From NCBI GenBank assembly GCA_963821525.1, contig CAWGED010000004.1, positions 96,001 through 160,000 of the forward strand: a stretch of DNA of 64,000 bases, written 5' to 3'. Positions 3,446 through 57,316 of the stretch are shown here, one piece after another. Position numbers and translations under genes: made by a program. The notes beneath the pieces were generated by a model. It was not told the origin of the DNA. It did no database searches and was given only the letters and a program-made list of their open reading frames with translations. The DNA is from an uncultured Gemmatimonadales bacterium (GTDB lineage: Bacteria > Gemmatimonadota > Gemmatimonadetes > Gemmatimonadales > GWC2-71-9). Numbering within the stretch: the first letter of the stretch is position 1; each line of letters opens with the position of its first letter.

Positions 3446-3448
3446 GGA

Positions 3449-3620
3449 CGTGAGAGGTGAGAGGTGAGAGGTGAGACGTGAGACGTGAGACGTGAGAAGG
3501 TGAAAGAGCGTGAGAAGTAAGAAGTGAGAAGTCAGAAGGAAATGCATGAGGTTCAGCCGGTTCAGCCAACACCCGTCTCACGTCTCACGCTGTCCCGTTC
3601 CCTGTTCCCGCGTTCCCGCT
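3449..3620. repeat. Heptamer tandem array (GTGAGAN)n with inverted GTCTCAC copies and GTTCCC-type repeats
   Basis: Directly visible between convergent genes. Confidence 0.9.
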
Positions 3621-7645: not shown

Positions 7646-7732
7646 GATCGCGAATGTGGGGAGCGGGCGCGCGATGCGCCATGGCCAGTGGGCCGAGTGG
7701 GATCGGGGTGGTGACGAGCGGGATCGGAGGGA

Positions 7733-7849
7733 ATTCAGATTGAAGATTTCAGATTGAAGATTGACCGAATGGGCGCAGCAGTCGGACATTCCGGTGGGCC
7801 CAGAAAATGCCCTCACAAATCTTCAATCTGAAATCTTCAATCTTCAATC
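7733..7849. repeat. Inverted pair of GATTGAA/GATTTCA heptamer arrays enclosing the GMC gene start codon
   Basis: GATTGAAGATTTCAGATTGAAGATT ... AATCTTCAATCTGAAATCTTCAATC are perfectly complementary. Confidence 0.9.
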
Positions 7850-9542
7850 ACCGGACACCCCGGGACGACACCTACGACGTGTGCATCGTCGGCTCGGGCG
7901 CCGGCGGGGGCATGGCGGCCACATGCTGACCCGGGCCGGCGCCAAGGTCATCATGCTGGAAGCCGGCGCCGATGTGGGACAACACCAAAGACTCGGCGAT
8001 GCTCAAGTGGGCCTACGAGTCGCCGCGCCGGGGCATGAGCACCAAGACAGCGCTCCTTCGGCGAGTTCGACGCCGGATTGGGCGGCTGGGAATTGCCGGG
8101 TGAGCCCTTTACCAGGGCGGAGGGGACAGACTTCAAGTGGTTCCGGCTCCGGATGCTCGGCGGTCGCACCAATCATTGGGGACGCATCTCGCTCCGCTTC
8201 GGCCCCGATGACTTTCGCCGCCGGAGCATCGACGGCCTGGGTGATGACTGGCCGATCACCTATGACGATCTCAAGCCGTGGTACGACGAGGTAGATCGCC
8301 TGATCGGCTTGTTCGGCAGCGCCGAGGGCCTTCCCAACCATCCCGATGGCATCTTCCTCCCGCCACCGCGCCCCCGCTGTTATGAGCTCCTGGTCAAGCG
8401 TGCCTCCGATAAGCTGAAGATCCCCTGCATTCCCGCGCGGCTTTCTATCCTGACTCGCCCCCTCAACGGGCGATCGGGCTGCCACTACTGCGGCCAGTGC
8501 AGCCGCGGGTGTGCGGTGAATGCGAATTTCACCTCGCCGAACGTGCTGATCCTGCCTGCACTCGCGACCGGGCGAGCTGAAGCTGGTGACGGGCGCCATG
8601 GCGCGAGAGGTAACGCTCGATCGGAACGGGCGGGCGGACGGTGTGCTCTATATCAACAAGGCGGATGGAAGCGAGCAGCGAGTCCGTGCCAAGGTGATCG
8701 TCCTCGCCGCCAGCGCCTGCGAGAGCGCGCGCATCCTGCTCAACTCGAAATCGTCCAGCTTTCCCCAGGGGCTGGCCAACGGCAGCGGGGTGGTTGGGAA
8801 ATATCTCACCGACACCACGGGGACCGACGTCTCGGGCTTCATTCCGGCGATGGTGGACCATGTCCCCCACAACGAGGACGGCGTCGGAGGGGCTCACCTT
8901 TACATGCCGTGGTGGCTCGATAACAAAGGCCTCGATTTTCCCCGCGGATACCACATCGAGATCTGGGGTGGCCTGGGTGCCCCCGCATACGGATTCATGG
9001 ATGGGATCCAGGACTACCCCTCGGGCGGAGGTTACGGAAAGCGGCTCAAGGACGACTACCGGAAATACTACGGCGCCACGATCGGCTTCTCGGGCCGGGG
9101 AGAACAGATCCCCAATGAAGATTGCTATTGCGAGCTGGACCCGGAGGTAGTGGACCGCTGGGGCATCCCGGTACTCCGCTTTCACTGGAAGTGGGCCGAT
9201 TACGAGCTGAACCAGGTGAAGCACATGCAGGAGACTTTCCGCGCCCTGATCGCCGAGATGGGCGGTCAGGTCCAGTCTCAGATGCCCTCCAAGGAAAAAG
9301 GCTACGGCATCGCCATCGGCGGATCGATCATCCACGAGCTCGGCACGGTGCGGATGGGGAAAGACCCCGCCAGGTCGGCGCTCAATTCCTACTGCCAGGC
9401 GCACGAAGTGAAGAACCTCTTCGTCACCGACGGTGGGTCGTTCGTCTCTCAAGCTGACAAGAACCCAACCTGGACCATCCTGGCGCTGTCCATGCGTGCC
9501 AGCGACTACATCGTCAGGGAGAGGAAAGCGGGGAGGCTGTAG
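7807..9542 (+). CDS. GMC family flavin oxidoreductase (glycoside 3-dehydrogenase-like large subunit), several frameshifts
   Basis: YDVCIVGSGAGGG, LGGRTNHWGR, CHYCGQCSRGC, IHELGTVRMG, NPTWTILAL. Confidence 0.88.
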
Positions 9543-11507: not shown

Positions 11508-13495
11508 AGAGCCTTTGGAACGACAAAGAAGCCTCTGGATCTGAAGGGGATCCGCTCCGGCTCCGGGTCTACACTTCGCGGCTTCTCGGGCGGGAGCCTT
11601 CGCTCGTCCTTCACGGCGGCGGCAACACCTCCGTAAAGACAACCGCGACGACCCTCTTCGGCGATCGGGAGGACCTGCTCTACATCAAGGGGAGCGGGTG
11701 GGATCTCGCGACGATCGAGGCAGCGGGATTCGCGCCGGTGCGGCTGCAGGTGCTGACCCGGATGGCCGAACTGCCTCGGCTCACCGATACGGAGATGGTG
11801 CGAGCCCAGCGGGCCGCGATGACCGACCCCGGTGCTCCGACGCCATCGGTCGAAGCGATCCTTCACGCCATCATCCCGTTCACCTTCGTGGATCACACCC
11901 ACGCCGACGCCGTTGTCGCGATAAGCAATACACCGGGAGGAGAAGCACGAATCCGCGAGGTCTACCAGGATCGCGTGCTGGTAGTGCCCTATGTCATGCC
12001 CGGATTCGTGCTGGCGCGAAAGGTGTTCGAGCTGAGTCGGGGACTGGACTGGTCGCGCTACGAAGGAATGGTCCTGCTGCATCACGGCGATTTTCAGCTG
12101 GGGCAACGATGCCCGCACCAGCTACGAGCGGATGATCGAGCTGGTGACCACGGCGGAAGACTATCTCCAGAAGAAGAAGGCGTGGACCGCCGTCCGTCGA
12201 GTCACCTCCTCCACCGCTCATGGCGTCAACGGCGTGGAGCTGGAACTCGCCCGGCTTCGTCGGGAAGCGTCACTTCTGCGCGGTGCTCCGATGATCGCGA
12301 CCCTCGACGACAGCGCCGAGGCTGCGGGATTTGCCGGACAGCCGGAGGTGGCTTCGATCGCATCGCGTGGTCCTCTCACTCCCGATCACGTCATCCGGAC
12401 CAAGCCTACGCCCTTGGTCTTGAACGGCGGCAAGTTCAGGTTCGGTCGAAGCCTTCGCCGCGGGATACCGCGAGTACTTCGCCCGCCACGCGACGCCGGA
12501 AGTGAAGCCGCTCGACCCGGCACCCCGCTGGGTGGTGTGGCCGGGCGTGGGCAACCGTGGCACTCGGTCCTAGTGCCAAGGATGCCGCGATTGCCGCAGA
12601 CATCGTGCGCCACACCGGGCGCGCGATCCAATGGGCCGAGGCCTTGGGAGGTTGGAGGGCGCTGCCGGAGGAAGACTTGTTCGAGGTGGAGTACTGGGAG
12701 CTGGAACAGGCCAAGCTCAAGGCCGCCGGTGCTTCTCCGCCGTTCCAGGGGAAGATTGCGCTGGTGACGGGTGCCGCGAGCGGTATCGGGCTCGCCACCG
12801 CCGAGATGCTTCACCGGCAGGGCGCGGCCGTGACGGGGCTCGATATCAACCCGGCAGTAACCAGGGTGCTCCAGAAGCCCGGGATGCTGGGGCTGACCTG
12901 CGATGTAACCGATGGCGGCGCGCTCAAGGAAGCGGTCGAGACCGCGATCCGCCAATTCGGAGGTCTCGACATCGTGGTCAGCAACGCGGGCATTTTCTCT
13001 CCCAGCGAGCGGCTGGAGGAGTTGAGCGACGCGAACTGGGAGCAGAGCCTCACACTCAATCTCACCAGCCACCGGATGCTTCTCGAGCTGGTGATTCCCT
13101 ATCTCCGGCTGGGCTTCGATCCGACCATCATCGTCAACGCATCGAAGAACGTTCCCGCTCCGGGGCCGGGTGCCGGCGCCTACTCGGTGGCCAAGGCCGG
13201 TCTGACTCAGCTGGCCCGCGTCGCGGCACTCGAGCTCGCGAAGGATGGAATCCGGGTCAACATCCTGCACCCTCACGCCGTCTTCGACACCGCGGCCTGG
13301 ACCCAGGAGGTCCTCGAGGCTCGGGCGAAGAACTACGGGATGACGGTCGATCAGTACAAGCGCAACAACCTGCTCGGCGTCGAGGTGACCTCGCAGGATG
13401 TCGCCGCACTGGTCTGCGCCATGGCCGGCCCCGCCTTCGCCAAGACGACCGGGGCACAGGTGCCGGTGGACGGGGGTAGTGATCGGGTGATTTGA
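11504..13495 (+). CDS. Bifunctional class II aldolase / short-chain dehydrogenase (rhamnulose-1-phosphate aldolase/ADH-like), frameshifts near 12090, 12440 and 12555
   Basis: GGGNTSVK, PSVEAILH, HTHAD, TPDHVIRTK, YWELEQAKL, TGAASGIG, YSVAK. Confidence 0.87.
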
Positions 13496-13500
13496 AGCCA

Positions 13501-13617
13501 TTGAAGATTTCAGATTTCAGATTGCAGATTGAAGGCGGGACCTCGACCATGGCGTGGAACCACCGACTGCCTGGCGTGAAGCTGTCAAATCATCAATCTG
13601 AAATCTTCAATCTGAAC
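13501..13617. repeat. Inverted GATTTCA/GATTGAA heptamer arrays between convergent genes
   Basis: TTGAAGATTTCAGATTTCAGATTGCAGATTGAA ... TCAATCTGAAATCTTCAATCTGAA. Confidence 0.85.
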
Positions 13618-13622
13618 ATTCC

Positions 13623-15288
13623 TCAGGCTACTGCCAACGCCCGCTCCACCAGATCCCTCGCCTCCTCCACCATCCGTCCGAGGTGGTGATCGTCCTTGAA
13701 GCTTTCCGCGTAAATCTTGTAGATGTCCTCGGTTCCCGAGGGCCGCACCGCAAACCAGCCGTGCCGCGTCGTGACCTTGAGCCCGTCGATCGGGGCGCCA
13801 TTGCCCGGTGCGGTCGTGAGGCGAGTTTCGATCGGGTCGCCCGCGATGAACGAGGCACTCACCGAGCTCGCCGTGAGTTTCTTGAAGCCCGCCTTCTGCG
13901 CCGGAGTGCAGGGCGTGTCGATCCTCGTATAGGCCGGCTCGCCATACATCGCGGTCAGGTCGCGATAGTGCTCGCCTGGATCCTTCCCGGTGGTCGCGGT
14001 GATCTCGGCGGCGAGAAGCCCCAGCAACAGTCCGTCCTTGTCGGTGGTCCAGACTAACCCCGATTTCTTCAGGAAGCTTGCCCCCGCGCTCTCTTCACCA
14101 CCGAAACAGCAGCTTCCGTCGAAGAGCCCCGGGGTAAACCATTTGAACCCGACCGGCACCTCGTAGAGTCGTCTTCCGAGCACCATTCACCACCCGATCC
14201 ACCAGAGCGCTGGTCACCACCGTCTTCCCTACGACGGCCTGAGTCCCCCATCCTGGACGGGACCCGAGGAGATAACGAATCGCGACGGCGAGGTAGTGGT
14301 TCGGATTGAGCAGCCCCGCCGAGCGGGTCACGATCCCGTGGCGGTCCGCGTCCGGATCGGTGGCAAAGGCGACATCGAACCGATCCTTGAGCCGCACCAG
14401 GCCGGCCATGGCCCAGGGACTCGAGCAGTCCATCCGGATTTTCCCGTCGTGATCCACGGTCATGAACTTGAATGTGGGATCGATCTGGGTGTTGGTGACG
14501 GTCAGATCGAGTCCATACTGCTCGGCAATCGGTCCCCAGTAGCCGAGCGACGATCCGCCCAGCGGATCGACTCCGATTCTGATGCCGGCGGCACCGATCG
14601 CCTCGAGATCGATCGCGTTGGCAAGATCGGCGACGTAGGTCGCGACCAGATCGCCATGCCGGGTAGTCCGAGCCGTTCGTGCCTTCTCGTACGGCACTCG
14701 TTTCACGCCGCGGTTTTCGTCGCGCAGCAGCGCATTGGCCCGTTCCTGGATCCACTTGGTGATCGTGGTGTCCGCCGGCCCTCCATTGGGCGGATTGTAT
14801 TTGATGCCCCCATCGGCTGGTGGATTGTGGGACGGGGTGATCACGATGCCGTCCGCGAGACGCACCGCCTCACTGCTCGTGTGCCCCCCGGCCCGGGAGG
14901 CGTTCCATGCCAGGATCGCGCGGGAGATCACCGGGGTAGGAGTGAACCCGTCGCGCCGCTGCATGACTACTTCAATGTGGTTTGCGGCGAGAACCTCGAG
15001 CGCGGTGCGCTCGGTAGGAGTCGAAATCGCATGGGTATCCTTGCCGAGAAAGAGCGGCCCGGCGATACCTCGCCCGGTGCGATACTCACAAATCGCCTGG
15101 GTGATGGCGAGGACGTGTGCTTCGGTGAATGTGCCCTCGAACGGGGATCCGCGGTGACCGCTCGTCCCGAAGCTGACCCGCTGGGCCGGATCTTCGGGAT
15201 TGGGCTGCCGCTCGTAGTAGTCACGCTCCAGCCGCGCCACGTCGATCAGCAGTTGTGGTGGAGCGGGCTGGCCGGCGAGTGGATGCAT
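13623..15288 (-). CDS. pgm: Phosphoglucomutase, alpha-D-glucose phosphate-specific (frameshift near 14185)
   Basis: [32 protein letters not shown]. Confidence 0.93.
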
Positions 15289-15325: not shown

Positions 15326-15354
15326 TTGCGGCGCTCCCTACCTCATGATAACAT
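15326..15354 (+). promoter_or_regulatory. sigma70-type promoter TTGCGG-N17-TAACAT with extended -10 TG
   Basis: Exact 17-nt spacing; the same architecture recurs at 19281-19309. Confidence 0.65.
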
Positions 15355-15360
15355 GCTCAC

Positions 15361-15497
15361 TCGGGACTCAGCCGGGTCGCTGGCTCAGGTGGAGCCTGGG
15401 TCGCCTTGTCGAGGGAGGCAGTAGCCTCCGAGTCGAAGGCACGAATGAGCTGTCCGCCTCCGCGGAGAGTTTCGTTCGGGCCTTTTTTCATTTCCGG
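15361..15497 (+). ncRNA. Putative cis-regulatory leader RNA, copy A (CCUUGUCG-hairpin-AGUCGAAGG plus terminator)
   Basis: CCTTGTCG 15404-11; GGAGGC/GCCTCC hairpin; AGTCGAAGG 15431-39; terminator stem 15436-15484 ending in the T6 run at 15483-88. Confidence 0.7.
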
Positions 15498-15526: not shown

Positions 15527-18502
15527 ATGGACGATGCACTGAAGCCACAATCGCACGGCTTCGATGCTGATGCCTTGGTACCCGACAGCCGAGCCCGGTG
15601 GGCGGGTCGAGTAGCGGGTTGGCTGCTCCTCCTCCTGGGCGCGACCGGAGCTCTCGGTCTCCTTCCAGGACTGCAATTTCTCAAGCAACCGGTCACCGGC
15701 TTCTCCCCGCTTTCGCTAGTCACCGGCCTGAGCCTTTGCGCCCTCGGCGCGGGCCTTGGTGGCGCTGGTCAGCGGCAAGCGGACGGCTGGCGCTCTGGGC
15801 GCCGCCGGGGCCGTGCTCGTCGCCGCACTGGCAGTCACTCAATATCTCCTCGGGGTCGATCTCGGGATCAATCCCGTCGCAGGCGGAGCGCGGCGGCGAG
15901 CGGGTTGAGCTCGTCGGTTCGGGTGTCGATCGCCAGCGCGATGCTCCTCGGACTGGCAGGCGCCGGCCTTATCACTCTCGCTTCACCGATCTCCCCGCAT
16001 CGCGGGAGACTCTTCGCCGGTGGATTCGGTTGTGTGGTGGTGGCCTTCGCCCTCGGCATTCTGCTTACAACAGGCATCTGGAATCTCGAGCAACAGGCGG
16101 GGCTTCTGGCCGGCTCCTCATTTCAGACGCTGATCGGCTCGCTGATCGGAGGCTCCTGCCTGGTGTTCATCGCCTGGAGCGCCGATCCCACCGCAGCACG
16201 CTCGGCGTATTGGCTACCGGTATCGGTGGGCGCGGGATGCCTCGTCACCGCGATCTTCCTCTGGCGCGCCCTCATCATCTACGAAGACGATCGGGTCCGC
16301 GGCCAGGCGACGATCGCGGCGCGAACCGCGAGGCGAGAGATCTATGGCCAGGTCCAGACCGGCACCCGGCTCCTGAGCCGCATTGCACGGTTCAGCTCGC
16401 CTCCCCGGCCCCAGTCGCCCAACTGGTCAAGCAGCATGGTGGCGATCACTCGCGATATCGACGGGCTCCTCGCAATCGCGTGGACCGATTCGACCGCGAA
16501 GGTCACCTACGTAGCACCTCCCACCGCCGATGCCGACACGTTGCGCTCCCAATTGCAGCGGGGACTGGAGGCGGCACTCGGTGGAACCCCGCCGGCATCT
16601 TGGCATTCCGCCACGATGTATTTCGGCATCGGGCCCGAGGGACAGACCTTCGCGGCTGCCGTACCTATCTGTGTACCCGCCGGCTGCAGCGGCTATGTGC
16701 TTGGCGTCTTCGACGCCGCGAGCCTGCTGGAGCCGGTGTTGGACAACCCAGGTGAGGGATACGCCTTTACCATCCTGACGTCGAGGGGCGCGAGCCTCCT
16801 CACCTCGCGCGAGCCGCCTGCCGGTGCCCGGAATCTCATGGACCGGTCCTCATTCAAGCTCGGCGATCTCAACTGGCAGCTTCAGGTCGGCGCCACACGA
16901 GAGACACTGCAGCGGCTCCGTTCGAAGCTTCCCGATCTGCTTCTGCTGGCAGGCCTGCTGGTCACCGCTCTCCTGCCGCTCACCGTGCGGCTGGCCCAGA
17001 TGACCTGGTCGCGCGCCCGCCTGGTGGAAAGAGTTCGCCTCAATCTCGCCCTGGAAACGGCAACCGACGGAATCTGGGAGTGGGACGTGCCGAGCGGTGC
17101 CGCGATCCGGAGTGCGACACTCTGGCGCCATCTGGGGTATGGCCCGACCGAGTTTCCGGCCAAGATCGACAGCTGGATGTCTCTCATTAACCCGGACGAT
17201 CGCGCCGCGGTGCAGGCGGCGATGGCGGCGCACCTCGCGGGCAAGACCGAAAGCTTCGAAGCGGAATACCGGATCCGGGACCATCTCGGCGGCTGGCATT
17301 GGGTCATCGATCGAGGCAGGGTCGTCGAACGAGCGCCCAGTGGCGTGCCGCTTCGGGTGCTGGGTATCAGCGCCGACGTTACCGAGCGGAAACGGACCGA
17401 CGAGGCGCTCGAGGCAAGCGAGCGGAGGTTCAGGGCCTGCTTCGACAGCGCTTACCAGCTGCAGAAGCTGCTCGACCTCGATGGGCGAGTGCTGGAGGCG
17501 AATCGCACCGCGCTGGACTTCTCCCGTACGACGATCGAGCAGTTGCGCGGCGTGCCGCTCTGGGATACCGAGATCTGGCTGAACAGTCCCACCAGCCGCG
17601 AAGCCTTGCGCGCCGCATTCGCCGAGGCGTGCAAAGGGAAGACAGTGAGGCAGGAGATGGAGCTGGACGCCGGCGAGGGACGCCACGCCATCATCGATTT
17701 TTCGCTGACCCCGATCATGGATACGGAAGGCAGGGTGGTTCAGCTCCTCGCCGAGGGGAGAGACATCACGGCCAGCAGGCAGGCCGAAGACCAGCTGCGC
17801 GAGGTCGAGTCGCTCTCGACCATGGGCCGGCTCGCGGCGCGCGTCGCGCACGAGATCAATAATCCGTTGGCCGGCATTCAGAATTCTTTCCTTCTCATCA
17901 AGGACGCGGTCCCCGAGGATCACCCGCATCACAGTTACGTGGGCGCCATCGAGCGAGAGATCGGCCGGATTGCCGGGGTAACCCGCCAGCTGTATGAGAC
18001 CTACCGCCCTGACTCCGACGGCGCGCGTGAGACATCCATACCGAACCTGGTTGGCGACGCGGTGGCGCTCCTCGGCCAGGTCAACCGCGATGCGCGGGTA
18101 ACGATCAAGGTGGACTTGCAGCGGGCACCCCACGTCGTACAGCTTCCCGATGCCCTGCTCCGCCAGGCGGTCTACAATCTGGTGCAGAACGCGGTAGAGG
18201 CATCCCCAAAGGGGGGAACGGTTTGGGTCACCGCGGCAGGAGAGGATGGCGTCTTCGAGCTGCGGGTCAAAGACAACGGACCCGGCATCCCGCAGGAGAT
18301 TCGAGAGCGAATTTTCGAGCCGTTTTTCACGACCAAGCCATCCAGCACCAGGACCGGTGGCATGGGTCTCGGTCTCTCGCTGGTCCGCCGCTCGGTCCAC
18401 GCGCTGGGCGGTCAGGTAGAAATTATTGACGTTCCTGGAGGCGGCACGGAGTTCGTGGTCCGGTTGCCCCTCGGGACCCGACATGCAGGAGCAATCTCAT
18501 GA
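15527..18502 (+). CDS. Multi-TM sensor histidine kinase with extracytoplasmic (CHASE/Cache-like) domain and two PAS domains
   Basis: PAS motifs ([21 protein letters not shown]), [20 protein letters not shown]. Probable compensating frameshifts at about 15780-15885. Confidence 0.9.
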
Positions 18503-19230
18503 CGATGCGCGGCAGGATCCTCCTTGCCGACGATGAAGAGACCTTCCTCAGTTCTACTGCGGATCTTCTTCGAAAAGAAGGCTTCGAGTGCGATACGGTC
18601 CAGGATGGCGTGAGCGCACTGGCTCGGGCGTCGGAGAATAACTACGACCTCCTGGTCACCGATCTGGAGATGCCCGGGAACGCCGATCTCTCCCTGATCC
18701 GGCAGATCACGTCCGCGAGAGGTGGCCTGCCCGTGATGGTTATTACCGGAGTCCCGTCGCTCCGCTCGGCTATGGCCTGCGTGGAACTGCCGGTCGCGGC
18801 CTACCTGGTCAAGCCGGTGGTTTTTTCCGACTTGCTGCCGCGGATCCAAACCGCGGTCACCCGGTTCCGTTCCTATCAGGCCATGCAGAGCGCGGAGCAG
18901 CGGTTGCAGGAATGGCGCAAGGAGCTGAAGACCCTGTCCGGGCCGGAAGGCAACTCGGCGTCCCCCACGGCGGGAATCGATGTGTTCCTGTCGCTTACGC
19001 TGCGAAACGTGATGGGATCGCTTACCGACCTGGAGCAGCTGGGACGCGCCCTGGCGGGTCAGCCGGTAGGACAGCACCCATGTCAGCTGCTGAATTGTCC
19101 CCGGGGAGCCCAGCTCCAGGAGGCGGTTCGGGAGACGATTCGGGTCCTTGAGGAGACTAAAAACGCCTTCAAGTCCAAAGCACTCGGGGAGTTGCGCCAG
19201 AGATTGGAGCTGCTGCTCGAGCACAATTGA
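18499..19230 (+). CDS. Response regulator with an unrecognised helical C-terminal output domain
   Basis: Intact REC domain (LADDE, TDLEMPG, YLVKP); coiled-coil-like linker; C-terminus ETIRVLEETKNAFKSKALGELRQRLE; ATGA coupling to the kinase. Confidence 0.9.
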   Translation: MTMRGRILLADDEETFLSSTADLLRKEGFECDTVQDGVSALARASENNYDLLVTDLEMPGNADLSLIRQITSARGGLPVMVITGVPSLRSAMACVELPVAAYLVKPVVFSDLLPRIQTAVTRFRSYQAMQSAEQRLQEWRKELKTLSGPEGNSASPTAGIDVFLSLTLRNVMGSLTDLEQLGRALAGQPVGQHPCQLLNCPRGAQLQEAVRETIRVLEETKNAFKSKALGELRQRLELLLEHN

Positions 19231-19265: not shown

Positions 19266-19309
19266 TGTGACAATGGTCACTTGCGCGAATAGGGCAATTT
19301 TCTTAACAT
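19266..19309 (+). promoter_or_regulatory. Class II CRP/FNR-family promoter: TGTGA-N6-TCACT box abutting TTGCGC-N17-TAACAT
   Basis: Box at 19266-81 is centred about -42 relative to the predicted start site (about 19316). Confidence 0.7.
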
Positions 19310-19327: not shown

Positions 19328-19435
19328 GGCGGGGATTGGAATCCTGCCACCTTGTCGGATGAGGCCTCGGCCTCATCAGTCGAAGGCGCGAACGACCCTC
19401 CTCGAGAGGTCGCCGCGCCTTTTGTGTTTCCCGGC
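19328..19435 (+). ncRNA. Putative cis-regulatory leader RNA, copy B
   Basis: CCTTGTCG 19350-57; GATGAGGC/GCCTCATC; AGTCGAAGG 19378-86; AAGGCGCG...CGCGCCTT followed by TTGTGTTT. Confidence 0.72.
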
Positions 19436-19454: not shown

Positions 19455-19615
19455 ATTACCGGTCACCACGCTCGGCCGGGCCTGACCCCGGCCGAGTGCG
19501 GTAACCATCAGCGGAAGCCTTGTCGAGCGGAGCGAAAGAGGCTTTGCGAGTCGAAGGCGCGGGATGACCGCTCTCCATGGGGAGATGCGCGAATCCGCGC
19601 CTTCGTTCGTTCCGG
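19455..19615 (+). ncRNA. Putative cis-regulatory leader RNA, copy C
   Basis: CCTTGTCG 19518-25; GCGGAGC/GCTTTGC; AGTCGAAGG 19549-57; CGAAGGCGCGG...CCGCGCCTTCG followed by TTCGTT. Confidence 0.7.
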
Positions 19616-19652
19616 TACCCGCGAGGCACGAAGCAGTAAGGGTTGGGGTTCG

Positions 19653-19862
19653 ATGAATCTGGATACGGTAGAAGGGCAGTGGACACGCCTGAGAGGAAAG
19701 ATCCTTGAGCAATGGGGTCGGCTGACCGCGGACGAGATTTCGATTGTCGCGGGCCGGCGTGACCAGCTCATCGGCATGCTCCAGCGGCGCTACGGAGTGG
19801 CGCGGGCGGAGCTGGAGCGCCAAGTGGAGGATTTCGAACGCAGGGTTCTGGCCGGCCGCTGA
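19653..19862 (+). CDS. csbD: CsbD/YjbJ family stress protein
   Basis: MNLDTVEGQWTRLRGKILEQWGRLT...G.RDQLIG.LQ.RYG pattern. Confidence 0.9.
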   Translation: MNLDTVEGQWTRLRGKILEQWGRLTADEISIVAGRRDQLIGMLQRRYGVARAELERQVEDFERRVLAGR

Positions 19863-19888
19863 GTCCGCGAGCCGCAAGAGGAGGGACT

Positions 19889-20104
19889 ATGCTGCGTTGG
19901 GCGATGGGTCTGCTCGTGGTCGCGCTGGTGACGACGATGTTCGGCGCAGGCGGGATCTTTTTCGCGACCGAGGCGTTGCGAACGCTGTTCTACCTCTTTG
20001 TTGTCGTCCTCCTGGCAACCATTCTGCCAGTGCTCGTTTCCGATCGCCGTAACATGGATGAATACCGCAGAGACCGCCGCACACGTGCCGCGAGTCGCGC
20101 CTGA
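19889..20104 (+). CDS. Small membrane protein, DUF1328 (UPF0391/YtjA)-like
   Basis: MLRWA, two TM helices, FGAGGI; SD GAGGGA. Confidence 0.75.
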   Translation: MLRWAMGLLVVALVTTMFGAGGIFFATEALRTLFYLFVVVLLATILPVLVSDRRNMDEYRRDRRTRAASRA

Positions 20105-20140
20105 GCGGTGGCATGCTCTGAGATCTCATAGGAGAGAGAA

Positions 20141-20807
20141 ATGCCGCTCGTTTCGATGAAGGACCTGCTCCTGTTCGCCTTGAAGGATCTGCACAGCGCG
20201 GAGACACAGTTGGCGAGGACTCTGCCCGCCATGATCAAAGGCTCGGGCGCTCCGAGCCTGCGTCGCGCGCTGAATCATCACCTTCGGCGGACCGAGGAGC
20301 ACGTGGACCGTTTGCAGGTCATCTGCGAGGCCCTCGAAACCTTCCCCGGCGGCCAGCGCTGCCGCGGCATGGAAGGGATGATCGAGGAAGTACGCACCGT
20401 CCTTCGCTCCATCGGAACCCAAAGCGTGGTTGATGCCGCCATCATCGCCGTGGCCCAGCGCATCTCCCATTACGAGATTGCCGCTTACGCAGTGCGCCAG
20501 GACCTATGCCGCCATGCTCGGACTGGACGACATCGCCGATCTGCTGGCGATGAGTCTCCAGGAAGAGGAAGCGGTGGAGACCGAGCTCACAGATATCGCG
20601 AACGAAGAAGTGAATGATCGGGCCCTCGTTGGGATGACGGAGTCAGAGCACTTGAGCCCGCTCGAAAACTTTCTGGACCCCGCAGGACGCCTGCCACATC
20701 GAAGGGAATCGGCACCGAAACCGGTGCCGGTTTCCCTCCCACCTCGATCGGGAGAGATGAGCAGGAATGGTGTGACAGTTGCCACATCCGGTCCAGGGAC
20801 ATGCTGA
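20141..20807 (+). CDS. DUF892 / YciF ferritin-like protein (frameshift near 20490)
   Basis: LKDLHSAETQL, TEEHV.RL, C.GMEGMIEE, AQRISHYEIAAY, LQEE...ELT. Confidence 0.85.
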
Positions 20808-20813
20808 TAGGTT
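20771..20813 (+). promoter_or_regulatory. Class II CRP-type box TGTGA-N6-CCACA plus extended -10 TGnTAGGTT
   Basis: Box 20771-86, -10 at 20808-13 (21-nt gap); lies in the tail of the DUF892 ORF. Confidence 0.55.
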
Positions 20814-20830
20814 GACTTTACGGATCGATA

Positions 20831-20936
20831 GGACGGGCTGACGGTTGTCCGTCCACCTTGTCGGATGGGGTTGAGCCCCATCAGGTGAAGGCGCGCTGAG
20901 CTGAAATTCAGGCTCTCGCGCCTTCGCTGCTTCCGG
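20831..20936 (+). ncRNA. Putative cis-regulatory leader RNA, copy D
   Basis: GGACGGGC/GTCCGTCC hairpin; CCTTGTCG 20856-63; GATGGGGT/GCCCCATC; AGGTGAAGG 20883-91; GAAGGCGCG...CGCGCCTTC. Confidence 0.68.
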
Positions 20937-20975
20937 TCTCGATGGCGCACTCTGGCATCGCGAGTGGAGGATTGA

Positions 20976-21593
20976 ATGTCGATCAAACGTCTACTTCGCG
21001 TCCTCGCATTCGGCCTCATGCTCGCCGGACTCGCGACGATTATTCCGTCCCGGGTCCACGCTCAGAATAGTCATGAAAGCAGCACCAGTCTGGGCGTCTG
21101 GGCCGCGATGTCCGCGCCGCTGGGCTCGGATCGCAGTGCAAGCTTGATCGGTACCAGCATCAACCGGCGCAACAGTTTTGCCGGCGGTGCCCGGCTCACG
21201 TTCTGGGGCACCAATATCCTGGGTGTTGAGGCAGTCGCCGGATTGACGCCGGCCAAAGTGGTGGCCGGAGCCAACATTAACGAGACCCGCAGCCTCGACG
21301 TCTTCGCCGGTGGGGTCAAGCTGATGGTCGGGTTGAGTCCCAGCATGTCGCCGGTAGGATTTCACGTGGGCGCGGGTCCCGCGATCGTACGTCGCGGTCA
21401 CTACGGCCTCGACCAATCGACTAGTAAGACGAACTTGGGCGGCCTCTTTGGAGCGGGCTTCAGGTTCCCTATTAACCAGACACTTGGGTTCCGGCTGGAC
21501 GTGGAAGACTACGTATACAACGCTTCGATCGAAGGCAAAGGGAAAACCCAAAATGATCTTATCACTTCGGCCGGCCTGACAATCAAATTCTGA
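20976..21593 (+). CDS. Outer membrane beta-barrel protein
   Basis: Signal peptide, alternating amphipathic strands, C-terminal Phe; SD GGAGG. Confidence 0.8.
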   Translation: MSIKRLLRVLAFGLMLAGLATIIPSRVHAQNSHESSTSLGVWAAMSAPLGSDRSASLIGTSINRRNSFAGGARLTFWGTNILGVEAVAGLTPAKVVAGANINETRSLDVFAGGVKLMVGLSPSMSPVGFHVGAGPAIVRRGHYGLDQSTSKTNLGGLFGAGFRFPINQTLGFRLDVEDYVYNASIEGKGKTQNDLITSAGLTIKF

Positions 21594-40280: not shown

Positions 40281-40318
40281 TTTTCAATCTGCAATCTGCA
40301 ATCTGCAATCTTCAAATC
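40281..40318. repeat. CAATCTG heptamer array
   Basis: TTCAATCTGCAATCTGCAATCTGCAATCTTCAA. Confidence 0.85.
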
Positions 40319-40514: not shown

Positions 40515-40618
40515 AGGACTGAGGACTGAGGACTGAGGGCTGAGTAGTTCCGAGTTCCGAGTAGGGAACTTATAGCTTACGGCTTACGGCTTATGGCTTA
40601 GGACTTACGGCTTGCGGC
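40515..40618. repeat. Compound heptamer arrays GGACTGA, GTTCCGA and GCTTACG
   Basis: Between convergent genes; overlaps the DinB stop codon. Confidence 0.88.
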
Positions 40619-41156
40619 CGCCTACTGATTGCCGGATCCGCTCAATCTGTCTCCGGTGTACCAGGTCGTGAGCCGCGGTCAGCGCGCGAAGTCGGCGGGC
40701 GCTTTCGCGGCCCCGCTCGGTATGAATGCCCACCCGATCCAGTTCTCCCTCACTGAGTTGACGGTAAAGCCTGAGATTTCGCCCGCGGAGCGCCTCGAGT
40801 TCCCGGAGTAGATCCTCGATCTCGGTCTCCCGATAGCGGAGACGCGCGGCCCATCGGTCCTGGTCGTAGCCCTGAATGACCGGCTCGTCTTCCGCGACAA
40901 TGGCCCGCAACCGATAGCTGTTGACCAGCTCCTGGTCTACGAGATGGCTTACCACCTCGAGGATGGACCATTTTCCCGGCGCCTCGGGCTCCAGCAGATC
41001 CTTACCCGACAACCCGCCGACAAGCCGCCGCACCTCGCCAAGTAATTCACCCTGAACGGCGAGCGGGTTCTGATCCCCCAGCAATTGAAGCAGGGCAGCG
41101 ATGTATGCGGCGGCATCGGCACCCGCCGTGCCCACCGGATTGGAAAAGACGGACAT
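40605..41156 (-). CDS. DinB family protein
   Basis: KWSILEVVSHL.D.E, YDQDRW, HDLVH..QI. Confidence 0.9.
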   Translation of the reverse strand: MSVFSNPVGTAGADAAAYIAALLQLLGDQNPLAVQGELLGEVRRLVGGLSGKDLLEPEAPGKWSILEVVSHLVDQELVNSYRLRAIVAEDEPVIQGYDQDRWAARLRYRETEIEDLLRELEALRGRNLRLYRQLSEGELDRVGIHTERGRESARRLRALTAAHDLVHRRQIERIRQSVGGRKP

Positions 41157-54884: not shown

Positions 54885-55202
54885 ATGCAGTTCGTCGCCG
54901 AGAGAATCCTCCCTGCCTATCTGGATGCGCTGGACCGTGCCCTGGAGGACGCGGTGGCTCGGCTGCCCGAGGGCGCCCTGAGAGCTACTCTGATGCGGCT
55001 TCGTCGTCGGAGTGGGCGGGAGGGAGCGTGGGACCGTTTCGGGGCGTTACACCGGCTCGCCATCCTCGGCGAGGCTCAGGGCTGGCTTCGTCCGGAGGAA
55101 GCCATCGTCATCAGGAAACTGGCCTACCGCGTGGCCTTCCTCACAATGAGGGCTGACACTAGCCGTCAGCCGTCAGCCTTCAGCGATGGGGAACACCGCT
55201 AG
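54885..55202 (+). CDS. Hypothetical helical protein
   Basis: MQFVAERILPAYLDALDRAL...; the tail derives from a repeat. Confidence 0.6.
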   Translation: MQFVAERILPAYLDALDRALEDAVARLPEGALRATLMRLRRRSGREGAWDRFGALHRLAILGEAQGWLRPEEAIVIRKLAYRVAFLTMRADTSRQPSAFSDGEHR

Positions 55203-55312
55203 CCCTAAGGCTTATGGCTTACGGCTTACGCCTTACGGCTTACGGCTTACGGCTTACGGCTAACAGCTAACAGCTAACAGCTAACGGCTGACGGCTGACC
55301 GCTGACGGCTCA
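55160..55312. repeat. Graded heptamer array GCTTACG to GCTAACA to GCTGACG with inverted CGTCAGC arm
   Basis: About 14 units with a stepwise change of unit sequence. Confidence 0.92.
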
Positions 55313-57208
55313 TCTGTACCCCGCCGCCTGAAGCCCGAACAACTCCGAGTAGAGGCCCTTGGTATCCAACAGCTCAGCGTGGGTCCCCTGCTCCACCAGC
55401 TCGCCGTCCTTGAGCACCAGGATACGATCCGCCATGCGGACCGTGCTGAAACGGTGGCTGATCAGCACCGCCATGCGGCCATGGGTCAGCTCGGAGAAGC
55501 GGAGGAAGACCTGGTATTCGGCGCGCGCATCGAGGGCGGCCGTGGGCTCGTCGAGGATCAGGAGCTGGGCATCTCGCAGGTAGGCACGGGCCAGGGCCAG
55601 CTTTTGCCATTCGCCCCCCGAGAGGTCGGCCCCGCCTTCGAACCGCTTCCCCAGTAACTGCTCATATCCGTCCTTGAAGCGGGCGATCACGCTGTCGGCC
55701 AGACTCCTGCTTGCCGCCACCTCGAGCGCCGGTTGGTCGTCCCGCCGGCCTATGTCGCCGACGGCGATGTTCTCCCGGATGGGAAAGTCGTAGCGGACGA
55801 AGTCCTGAAAAATCACGCCGACATTGCGTCTCAGGCTCTCGATGTCGTATTCCCGCAGATCTCGACCGTCGAGCAGGATGCGTCCTTCGCTGGGGTCGTA
55901 GAGGCGAGCGAGGAGTTTGGCGAGGGTGGTCTTGCCCGCACCGTTCTCTCCCACCAGGGCCAGTCGCTCGCCGGGCTTGAGCACGAAGTTGAGTCCCCGT
56001 ACGGCCCAACGCTCCGAGCCGGGGTAGCGGAACCCGATATTCTCGAACTGGAACCCGAGCCGAATGGGAGATGGTACCACGACCGCGCCAGGCGTACGGC
56101 GGATCCGGGGCTCGAGATCGAAGAACGAGAACAGATCTTCCAGATAGAGCGCCTGCTCGAAGAGCTGGGCCAGCGACAGCAGAAACCGCTGGATCAAGTC
56201 CCGGCTCTGCCGGAAGGAAGCGGCGAGGAAGGTCAGCACCCCAAGGGTAAAGGGCCCGGCGGGCGACTGATGCCGGGTTACGGTGAGATAGATGATCGCG
56301 ACATACGCCCCGTAGTACCCGACCGAGCCGACCAGGGCGAGAAGTGAGGAGACCACCGCGCGGCGAATCGCCAGTTGGCGGTTGGCCTCGTAGAACTCGT
56401 CGGAGAGCTGGGCGTACTGCCCTACCAGATAGTCGGAGAGGCCAAAAAGCTTCACTTCCTTGGCGGAGACATCGCTGGCGCCTATGTAGCGCAGGTAGTC
56501 GAGCTGGCGTCGTTCCTGGGTCCAGGAAAAGAGCAGCGAGTAGCCGAGCGCGGCGTAACGAGTCTCGCCGAGGAACGAAGGCAGAACTGCGAGGGCGAGG
56601 AGCAACAGCAGCCAGGGGACGTAGACCGTGATCGCAATGGCCAGCGATACGAGGGTGATCAGGTCCTGGAGGCTGGCGAGTATGCCGGTAAAGAGGCCGA
56701 TCCGCCCTACCGTCTGCCGGCGAGCTCGCTCCAGCTTGTCGTACACCTCGGCGTCCTCCAGCTGCTGGAGATCGAGTGATGCCGCGTGCTGCATCAGTTG
56801 AACGCTGGTGCGGTTGGCGAACAGGTCGCCCAGCAGACTCTCCAGGAGGGACGAGGTACGGGCAAGGATTTCGCCCACGATTGCGATGCCGAACTCGACA
56901 GCCACGAGCAGGAGCAGGTGCCGGTAGGCCTGAATGTCTGAGGCGGCGACTCCCGGCTCCCCCAACACGCGTACTACTTCATCGATGATGAGCTTCCCGA
57001 TCCATAGCGTCGCGATTGGAATCCCCGCCCGGAGCGCCCGGAGCCCCACAATGAGGACGCTGTAGAGGCGGTTGGTCTCCCAAACCAGCCGGAAGAATTC
57101 CGGGAGATGGCGGGTGGCTCGCATCCGCTCCCGCCAACTCGGTGCTTCCTGGATGAGCTTGGGCGGGCGGCGGGGCCGGTTGCTGGCAGGGCCTCCGGGG
57201 AAGGTCAT
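55310..57208 (-). CDS. ABC transporter fused permease/ATP-binding protein
   Basis: GENGAGKT, LSGGEWQ, LDEPT, SHRFST. Confidence 0.93.
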   Translation of the reverse strand: MTFPGGPASNRPRRPPKLIQEAPSWRERMRATRHLPEFFRLVWETNRLYSVLIVGLRALRAGIPIATLWIGKLIIDEVVRVLGEPGVAASDIQAYRHLLLLVAVEFGIAIVGEILARTSSLLESLLGDLFANRTSVQLMQHAASLDLQQLEDAEVYDKLERARRQTVGRIGLFTGILASLQDLITLVSLAIAITVYVPWLLLLLALAVLPSFLGETRYAALGYSLLFSWTQERRQLDYLRYIGASDVSAKEVKLFGLSDYLVGQYAQLSDEFYEANRQLAIRRAVVSSLLALVGSVGYYGAYVAIIYLTVTRHQSPAGPFTLGVLTFLAASFRQSRDLIQRFLLSLAQLFEQALYLEDLFSFFDLEPRIRRTPGAVVVPSPIRLGFQFENIGFRYPGSERWAVRGLNFVLKPGERLALVGENGAGKTTLAKLLARLYDPSEGRILLDGRDLREYDIESLRRNVGVIFQDFVRYDFPIRENIAVGDIGRRDDQPALEVAASRSLADSVIARFKDGYEQLLGKRFEGGADLSGGEWQKLALARAYLRDAQLLILDEPTAALDARAEYQVFLRFSELTHGRMAVLISHRFSTVRMADRILVLKDGELVEQGTHAELLDTKGLYSELFGLQAAGYR

Positions 57209-57215
57209 GATAGAA

Positions 57216-57316
57216 AGTACCTAGTACCGAGTACCGAGTACCTAGTCATCCGGCTAGGCCCACTGCAGAGAGTGGATCGAGCCTCTCGGTACTAGGTACT
57301 AGGTACTCGGTACTAG
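57216..57316. repeat. Inverted GTACCTA/GTACCGA vs GTACTAG/GTACTCG heptamer arrays
   Basis: Fills the whole divergent intergenic region. Confidence 0.92.

Follow-up and report, generated by a model that had tools for sequence, protein, structure and literature searches.

A response regulator with a conserved helical output domain and a terminator–antiterminator RNA element that accompany each other: a candidate antitermination system in Gemmatimonadota

The window analysed here is the whole 64,000-nucleotide stretch spanning positions 96,001 to 160,000 of contig CAWGED010000004.1 (assembly GCA_963821525.1), from an uncultured Gemmatimonadales bacterium. It holds a kinase-regulator operon, four copies of an RNA element and the genes that lie behind them, arranged as follows.

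15326..15354, + strand: sigma-70-like promoter candidate TTGCGG-N17-TAACAT ahead of copy 1, found by eye and below the cut-off of a strict scanner
15404..15495, + strand: RNA switch copy 1, leader of the kinase-regulator operon, which may thereby be autoregulated
15527..18502, + strand: cognate membrane histidine kinase gene, 991 aa, with PAS_3, PAS_4, HisKA and HATPase_c (Pfam)
18499..19230, + strand: response regulator gene, 243 aa, with a receiver (7–116), a long linker helix (109–147) and a helical output domain (about 150–243)
18946..19227, + strand: output domain of about 90 residues, with helix 156–185, a Cys loop and antiparallel helices 201–219 and 227–242; fused to PAS domains in relatives
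19081..19098, + strand: Cys pair C195-x4-C200
19156..19179, + strand: TKxxFKSK loop, residues 220–227, forming with R233 the patch of highest conservation and a candidate surface for RNA contact
19281..19309, + strand: sigma-70-like promoter candidate TTGCGC-N17-TAACAT ahead of copies 2 and 3, found by eye
19350..19432, + strand: RNA switch copy 2, comprising CCUUGUCG, a hairpin, AGUCGAAGG, an overlapping terminator and a U tract, 120 nt past the regulator stop
19518..19614, + strand: RNA switch copy 3, in tandem with copy 2 and 38 nt ahead of csbD
19653..19862, + strand: csbD-like stress gene (PF05532), putative target
19889..20104, + strand: small membrane protein with a weak DUF1328 match (E 0.26), putative target
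20141..20617, + strand: DUF892 (YciF-like) gene with a one-base frameshift near 20491, putative target
20856..20935, + strand: RNA switch copy 4, 40 nt ahead of the beta-barrel gene
20976..21593, + strand: outer-membrane beta-barrel gene (PF13505), putative target

The stop of the kinase gene overlaps the ATG of the regulator gene. An intact receiver had been predicted, and Pfam places PF00072 at residues 7–116 with D11, D12, D55, T83 and K105 all retained. These five residues are invariant among 30 close members, and D55 is present in 113 of 139 aligned rows, 10 of which have gaps there. The stretches quoted in the original prediction are all found in the open reading frame (AMQSAEQRLQEWRKELK at 128–144, HPCQLLNCP at 193–201 and TIRVLEETKNAFKSKALGELRQRLE at 213–237). 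Within the kinase reading frame, an Arg-rich stretch of the membrane region (window 15750–15900) resembles two compensating frameshifts and is probably a sequencing error; one contig assembled from RNA runs is one base short at 15756, inside this stretch. Upstream, a phosphoglucomutase-like gene (by eye) is spread over two overlapping ORFs at 13623–15288, likely another frameshift error. The window also carries arrays of 7-nt tandem repeats of few sequence types, several at gene boundaries (3447–3529, 7731–7857, 13492–13627, 40284–40311, 40555–40632 and 55183–55323), and a long near-perfect inverted repeat of short repeated units at 57222–57315, which gave a chance match to a miRNA model.

The prediction that the output domain is neither HTH, LytTR, canonical ANTAR nor enzymatic held up in searches of Pfam, NCBIfam and PDB sequences, which returned no confident DNA-binding or enzymatic domain. 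Residues 123–243 had no Pfam match at E<=1, no NCBIfam family at E<=0.1 (every NCBIfam match of the whole protein ends by residue 148) and a single match among PDB sequences, at E 1.5. HTH, winged-helix, LytTR and AAA+ output profiles were absent from the window protein in Pfam and NCBIfam, and HTH, winged-helix and LytTR profiles were likewise absent from the 25 commonest families of 139 members. Neither those 25 families nor Pfam and NCBIfam supplied an enzyme profile for the ~90-residue domain. The ANTAR profile PF03861 did not match the window protein at E<=1 and lies outside the 25 commonest of 156 families in the 139 members; hhalign against 16 ANTAR sequences, using a shallow template (Neff 2.9), gave probabilities of 0.03–0.74%. 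No CAT or PRD match was found in the window protein by Pfam. The domain was also unmatched in the ESM Atlas, a blank that indicates neither novelty nor absence.

Across the family, the domain keeps the motifs CxLxxCPR and TKxxFKSKxLxxLR. In the alignment of 139 members, conservation reaches 90% or more at thirteen positions (C195, C200, P201, L217, T220, K221, F224, K225, S226, L229, L232, R233 and L236) and is highest at the TKxxFKS residues and R233. The predicted Cys pair is present within HPCQLLNCP, and 134 of the 139 members have both cysteines; it could form a metal or redox site. We infer that the TKxxFKSK patch contacts RNA, with a basic character that is modest (median net charge +3 over residues 217–237), and S226 and F224 could have purely structural roles. 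An earlier structure model of the whole protein was poor in 148–199; an alignment-based model with a mean pLDDT of 90.4 resolves the receiver, helix 109–147, helix 156–185, a short Cys loop and helices 201–219 and 227–242. The hairpin of the original prediction is therefore upheld, but its helix-turn-helix likeness is not: two long antiparallel helices are joined by the TKxxFKS loop. Coevolution in 365 sequences, effectively 189 so that only top pairs count, agrees with this arrangement, since the strongest pairs (212–235, 219–228 and 209–239) describe an antiparallel hairpin and not a classic HTH. It also places F163, N170, the Cys loop and the FKS loop close together. Fold searches with the full-length model (PDB Foldseek, VIA and BFVD) were filled by receiver matches and barely covered residues past about 170. 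Among the matches listed, EutV was the furthest-aligning chain, reaching residue 165–169, short of the conserved C-terminal motif, in a whole-model search dominated by the receiver.

Searching with residues 120–243 yielded 713 proteins among 934 candidates, the named ones belonging to Gemmatimonadota, and also 602 clusters at 50% identity; named distant members belong to Deltaproteobacteria and Phycisphaerae. Database names such as 'DNA-binding response OmpR family regulator' derive from the receiver. The output domain is modular: P0211, P0215 and P0264 bear it behind PAS domains without a receiver match, and can be regarded as one-component forms. A fourth PAS-fused protein, P0394, comes from a single short contig that may be chimeric. 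At one distant locus (L157:7154-7465), a second copy of the output domain, possibly receiver-less or broken, lies directly behind an element copy and adjoins a full regulator. No homologue was found on plasmids, and we found no literature on the protein family or the RNA element in a search that was thin on subscription papers and motif-survey supplements.

The RNA element has a consistent anatomy. CCUUGNCG is followed by a hairpin of 17–33 nt with free sequence, then AGNYGAAGG and a long stem whose last bases are CCUU, with a U-rich tail after it. Its core spans 37 nt, of which about 17 nt, on one irregular stem, are conserved in sequence. The pattern CCTTGTCG-N(10-40)-GAAGGC matches the window four times against 0.03 expected. 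A covariance model, R1, built from 72 copies and encoding the inner hairpin and terminator pairs only, with no antiterminator pairs, detected 11 copies on five contigs of the genome at E<=3e-8 and nothing further below 0.16. At E<=1, Rfam 15 matched none of the copies in the window or in seven loci, and the element lies outside the 20 repeat families listed by a general repeat finder. A loose IUPAC version of the core pattern gave as many matches as its reversed control. No weight was given to the core being invariant in alignment A3, whose members had been selected by the core pattern itself. On viral contigs, none of the 80 pattern loci examined, of at least 120, passed a filter for hairpin and terminator. 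Many distant copies carry an extra 5' hairpin just ahead of the core (noted among L111, L113, L154, L157, L160 and L099). The original prediction had placed the element on both sides of the regulator's operon. Copies do begin at 15404 and 19350, but both are on the + strand, so the downstream one serves as leader to the operon that follows and has a promoter-like site of its own ahead of it.

Each copy can adopt two folds. The AAGG strand pairs either with the upstream CCUU, forming an antiterminator, or with the downstream CCUU, forming a terminator, and the two are mutually exclusive. Base changes follow both sets of pairs. In 62 distinct copies from ten genomes, collected with R1, antiterminator pair 8–58 is UA in 45, CG in 4, GC in 3 and UG in 1 (5 unpaired, 4 gaps), pair 7–59 is UA in 56, CG in 2 and UG in 2 (2 unpaired) and pair 9–56 is GC in 40, GU in 11, AU in 6 and UG in 1 (4 unpaired). 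The same bases covary with the 3' arm of the terminator (pair 58–126: AU 50, GC 4, CG 2), and all three strands are altered together in six copies from four genomes. Distant loci repeat the pattern, with pair 9–73 being GC in 48 of 69 matches, UA in 4, AU in 3 and GU in 3 (4 unpaired, 7 gaps). By calculation, with the CCUU/AAGG pairs enforced for the alternative, the terminator fold is the more stable by 6.5–12.3 kcal/mol in all four window copies; in median terms, the closing stem adds about 6 kcal/mol compared with about 27 for the terminator hairpin. The conserved bases sit in the antiterminator internal loop, and the upper part of the terminator is free to vary.

Regulator and element occur in the same genomes. 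Across 151 Gemmatimonadota genomes, an RNA search that scored 28 candidates per genome found the element in 17 (E<1e-4), and a close homologue of the regulator was present in 16 (E<1e-30): 16 genomes have both, one has the element only and none has the close homologue only, figures for which Fisher values overstate the association, because the genomes compared are kin; this genome-level comparison covers one phylum. A further three genomes, all lacking the regulator, show a single marginal RNA match each (E 0.001–0.009), and in two genomes a distant homologue occurs in the absence of the element. Rescoring five negative genomes with 150 candidates gave a best E of 0.147. Presence is patchy inside genera g7, g11, g30 and g41. 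The regulator and the RNA are inherited together, with exceptions in three genomes: G121 (97% complete) has two good element copies and no regulator by profile; G077 has no element copy and a homologue with an intact C-terminal motif and a degenerate receiver (L085:2965-3756); and G003 has no element copy and a homologue that has lost P201, F224 and R233.

The association extends to individual loci. Among the best 80 of 249 genome loci, 72 have the element by a pattern-and-fold filter, compared with 4 of 80 after shuffling, and it lies within 450 nt after the regulator stop in 55 of the 73 with enough flank; the pattern was derived from those same loci, so these counts are descriptive. Of 391 metagenome loci fetched by the distant protein alone, the best 80 include 48 with the element at E<1e-4 and 7 more at E 0.005–0.05, at least one of the 80 resembling a Gemmatimonadota member. 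The other 25 had no element match at E<=0.06, several of them with 6 kb of flank. Homologues are thus found beside the element in near and distant lineages, contrary to what would have counted against the original prediction. Candidate target genes behave in the same way: among the 30 best csbD loci, the element stands beside 7 of 11 from regulator-positive genomes and none of 19 from regulator-negative ones, and among 30 DUF892 loci it occurs in 4 of 8 and none of 22, respectively. ANTAR genes are found in 18 of the 151 genomes, yet in only three of the 17 element carriers (none in 14), and PF03123 (CAT) is absent from all five multi-copy genomes, its controls being positive in 4 of 14. Co-occurrence would equally follow if the kinase-regulator operon were merely a target of the element.

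Genes behind the copies in this genome comprise the kinase-regulator operon, csbD (twice), DUF892 genes, a low-affinity iron permease, DUF4397, a PAS protein and the beta-barrel. In the window, the DUF892 gene is split by one extra base at 20491 that is missing in contigs of three runs and is probably an assembly error. Calling first genes by a simple start and Shine-Dalgarno rule, which may be wrong in some cases, we obtained Pfam matches for 10 of 23 genes behind copies in seven relatives, among them DUF892 (2), CsbD, DUF1328, DUF4397, a pyridoxamine-oxidase-like protein and LuxR-type regulators (2). Behind distant copies, 20 of 29 genes matched Pfam (kinases, receivers, chemoreceptor-like, HD and HDOD proteins, GvpA, PilM and 2Fe-2S subunits). 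A GvpA gas vesicle gene lies directly behind a switch copy at L158:7159-7362, and at L143 a copy precedes the regulator gene itself. No pathway is common to the downstream genes of different lineages, and across 80 distant loci the shared neighbours are kinases and receivers only, with no third gene family common to them.

Promoter-like sites commonly precede the element. Using our own loose patterns, built on consensus sequences, we found a sigma-70 pattern 19–51 nt upstream of 35 of 61 Gemmatimonadota copies against 1.2 expected. Among 60 distant copies, 18 have a sigma-28-like pattern on their upstream side against 0.3 expected; the promoter type differs between lineages. A strict promoter and terminator scanner reported no promoter and only part of copy 1. 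The sigma-28-like sites in distant lineages (L111, L113, L154, L157, L160 and L099) tie the switch there to motility-class transcription. In RNA runs, taken as assembled contigs that each share under 0.2 of words, coverage from 19532 or 19563 to 21575 comes from two runs of separate studies, with little over the kinase-regulator genes; this ranks nothing and shows no transcript end.

Several known systems bear comparison. Position 1 of the ANTAR hexaloop is a conserved A; the loops of our element measure 3–10 nt in 178 single-loop folds of 184 copies, 19 of them hexaloops, of which one has A1 and G4. The RAT element bound by CAT proteins is a single stem with internal loops, and ours is also a single irregular stem. 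In the parts of the literature available to us, response regulators that act by antitermination do so through the ANTAR domain (PMC12471899, PMC12591593), phosphorylated EutV dimerises and then binds its RNA (PMC3369931), and the ANTAR target RNA consists of two hairpins whose hexaloops have a conserved G4 (PMC8934654). Like the ANTAR proteins EutV/EutW of Enterococcus faecalis, AmiR, NasR and PdtaR, the regulator combines a phosphorylatable receiver and cognate kinase with a long post-receiver helix (109–147, pLDDT about 87–97), through which EutV aligns. Unlike them, it has no PF03861, its profile-profile probability is below 1%, and its output of about 90 aa, with the Cys pair and TKxxFKSK, lies past the EutV-aligned part in a fold comparison that reaches only to about residue 170. 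The RNAs differ as well, one irregular stem with a free-sequence loop replacing two hexaloops, and the targets are stress and signalling genes, whereas those of ANTAR belong to nitrogen metabolism. In the BglG/SacY/LicT type, the excerpted account in PMC12591593 has the protein stabilising a hairpin that overlaps the terminator, an arrangement that our system would share. CAT is described there as a 55-residue beta-sheet dimer controlled by PTS phosphorylation of PRD domains, whereas the present domain is all-helical behind a receiver and no CAT gene occurs in the five multi-copy genomes. The system would work like EutV/ANTAR and BglG/RAT but differs from both in protein profile and from the ANTAR type in RNA signature.

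A further parallel lies in the target set. The sigma-B, sigma-S and EcfG regulons share with this system csbD, DUF892/yciF, DUF1328 and a low-affinity iron permease, the last three of which have been linked to sigma-factor stress regulons. For csbD, the consulted portion of PMC11109978 describes a general stress gene often under a sigma factor. Here, in contrast, the genes are preceded by sigma-70-like promoters and an attenuator, which would place control at elongation. Genomes with this system have 16–22 matches to sigma region 2 each, so a stress sigma factor may also act.

The leader has two exclusive folds, the terminator is favoured by calculation, the element is promoter-proximal and the regulator co-occurs with it. 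We therefore consider it probable that the regulator is a phosphorylation-controlled, RNA-binding antiterminator running a stress regulon, in which the binding step is putative. Under such a scheme, a constitutive promoter would make the leader, and transcription would terminate by default. The upstream kinase would phosphorylate D55, and the regulator, with EutV as the precedent, would dimerise through its linker helix. The basic TKxxFKSK/R233/R202 surface might then grip the irregular stem of CCUUGNCG/AGNYGAAGG as it leaves the polymerase and so withhold AAGG from the terminator, permitting read-through into csbD, yciF-like, permease and signalling genes. Read-through of copy 1 into the kinase-regulator operon would provide positive feedback, and the tandem copies 2 and 3 may sharpen the response.

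Other explanations have to account for the same leader. An unlikely one is a small-molecule or second-messenger riboswitch, with the kinase-regulator operon as a target or with an output domain that makes or degrades the ligand. Second-messenger riboswitches likewise control signalling, motility and stress genes, the classes enriched among the targets; a terminator/antiterminator layout with a sequence-conserved internal loop would suit one, as would the copies that G121 keeps without the regulator. Such a sensor is harder to reconcile with a conserved core of about 17 nt on one irregular stem, with the Rfam blank, with the absence of the element from all 41 csbD and DUF892 loci of regulator-negative genomes and with its place just downstream of the regulator, ahead of other genes, in 55 of 73 loci; the lack of an enzyme profile in a ~90-residue domain speaks against a ligand enzyme. 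Because the targets share no common metabolic pathway, a portable signalling module fits better than a metabolite sensor. Indirect control is decidedly unlikely: the regulator would partner or release another RNA-binding protein, or load at the element and act on RNA polymerase. In its favour, helical bundles are frequent mediators of protein contacts, the Cys pair might have a metal or redox role, and direct RNA binding is itself inferred. However, the distant loci offer no third gene family as the partner, ANTAR and CAT do not track the element, and a processive factor would not need the local alternative fold that every copy has.

The sign of control could also be reversed: the regulator would bind the leader but promote termination as a repressor, and the antiterminator, being transcribed earlier, would be the default fold. 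Its strands are complete before the 3' arm of the terminator, so kinetic trapping could occur. We regard this as very improbable given that the conserved bases fall in the antiterminator internal loop and not in the variable upper terminator, and that a closing stem of about 6 kcal/mol would face a terminator hairpin of about 27 (medians). Least probable of all is that the output domain binds DNA at or near promoters and something else controls the RNA switch. Basic residues on a helical hairpin and the 'DNA-binding response OmpR family regulator' names, though receiver-derived, are in keeping with DNA binding; the missing HTH, winged-helix and LytTR profiles among the 25 commonest families argue against it, as does conservation near the genes, which follows RNA pairing and strand while promoter types vary by lineage.

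Direct antitermination by the regulator thus remains our preferred account. We lean, with more reserve, towards a broader reading in which RNA-binding response regulators would include a second class, evolved independently, that has an RNA switch of its own and occurs in several phyla of uncultured bacteria. Its RNA-binding fold would be new and might be tuned by metal or redox state via the Cys pair. In Gemmatimonadota this class would control a general-stress regulon by antitermination through as many as 14 leaders, a task for which model bacteria employ alternative sigma factors. The parts are small (a 37-nt core and a 243-aa protein) and natural compensatory variants exist; the pair could serve as an orthogonal phosphorylation-gated RNA switch. 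If an unrelated domain–RNA pair does the job of ANTAR, it would be new on both sides, as an RNA-binding module and as a family of regulatory RNA. Hundreds of regulators that currently go under the misnomer 'DNA-binding OmpR family' would thereby gain a function, and it would mean that an abundant soil phylum has a stress regulon wired at transcription elongation.
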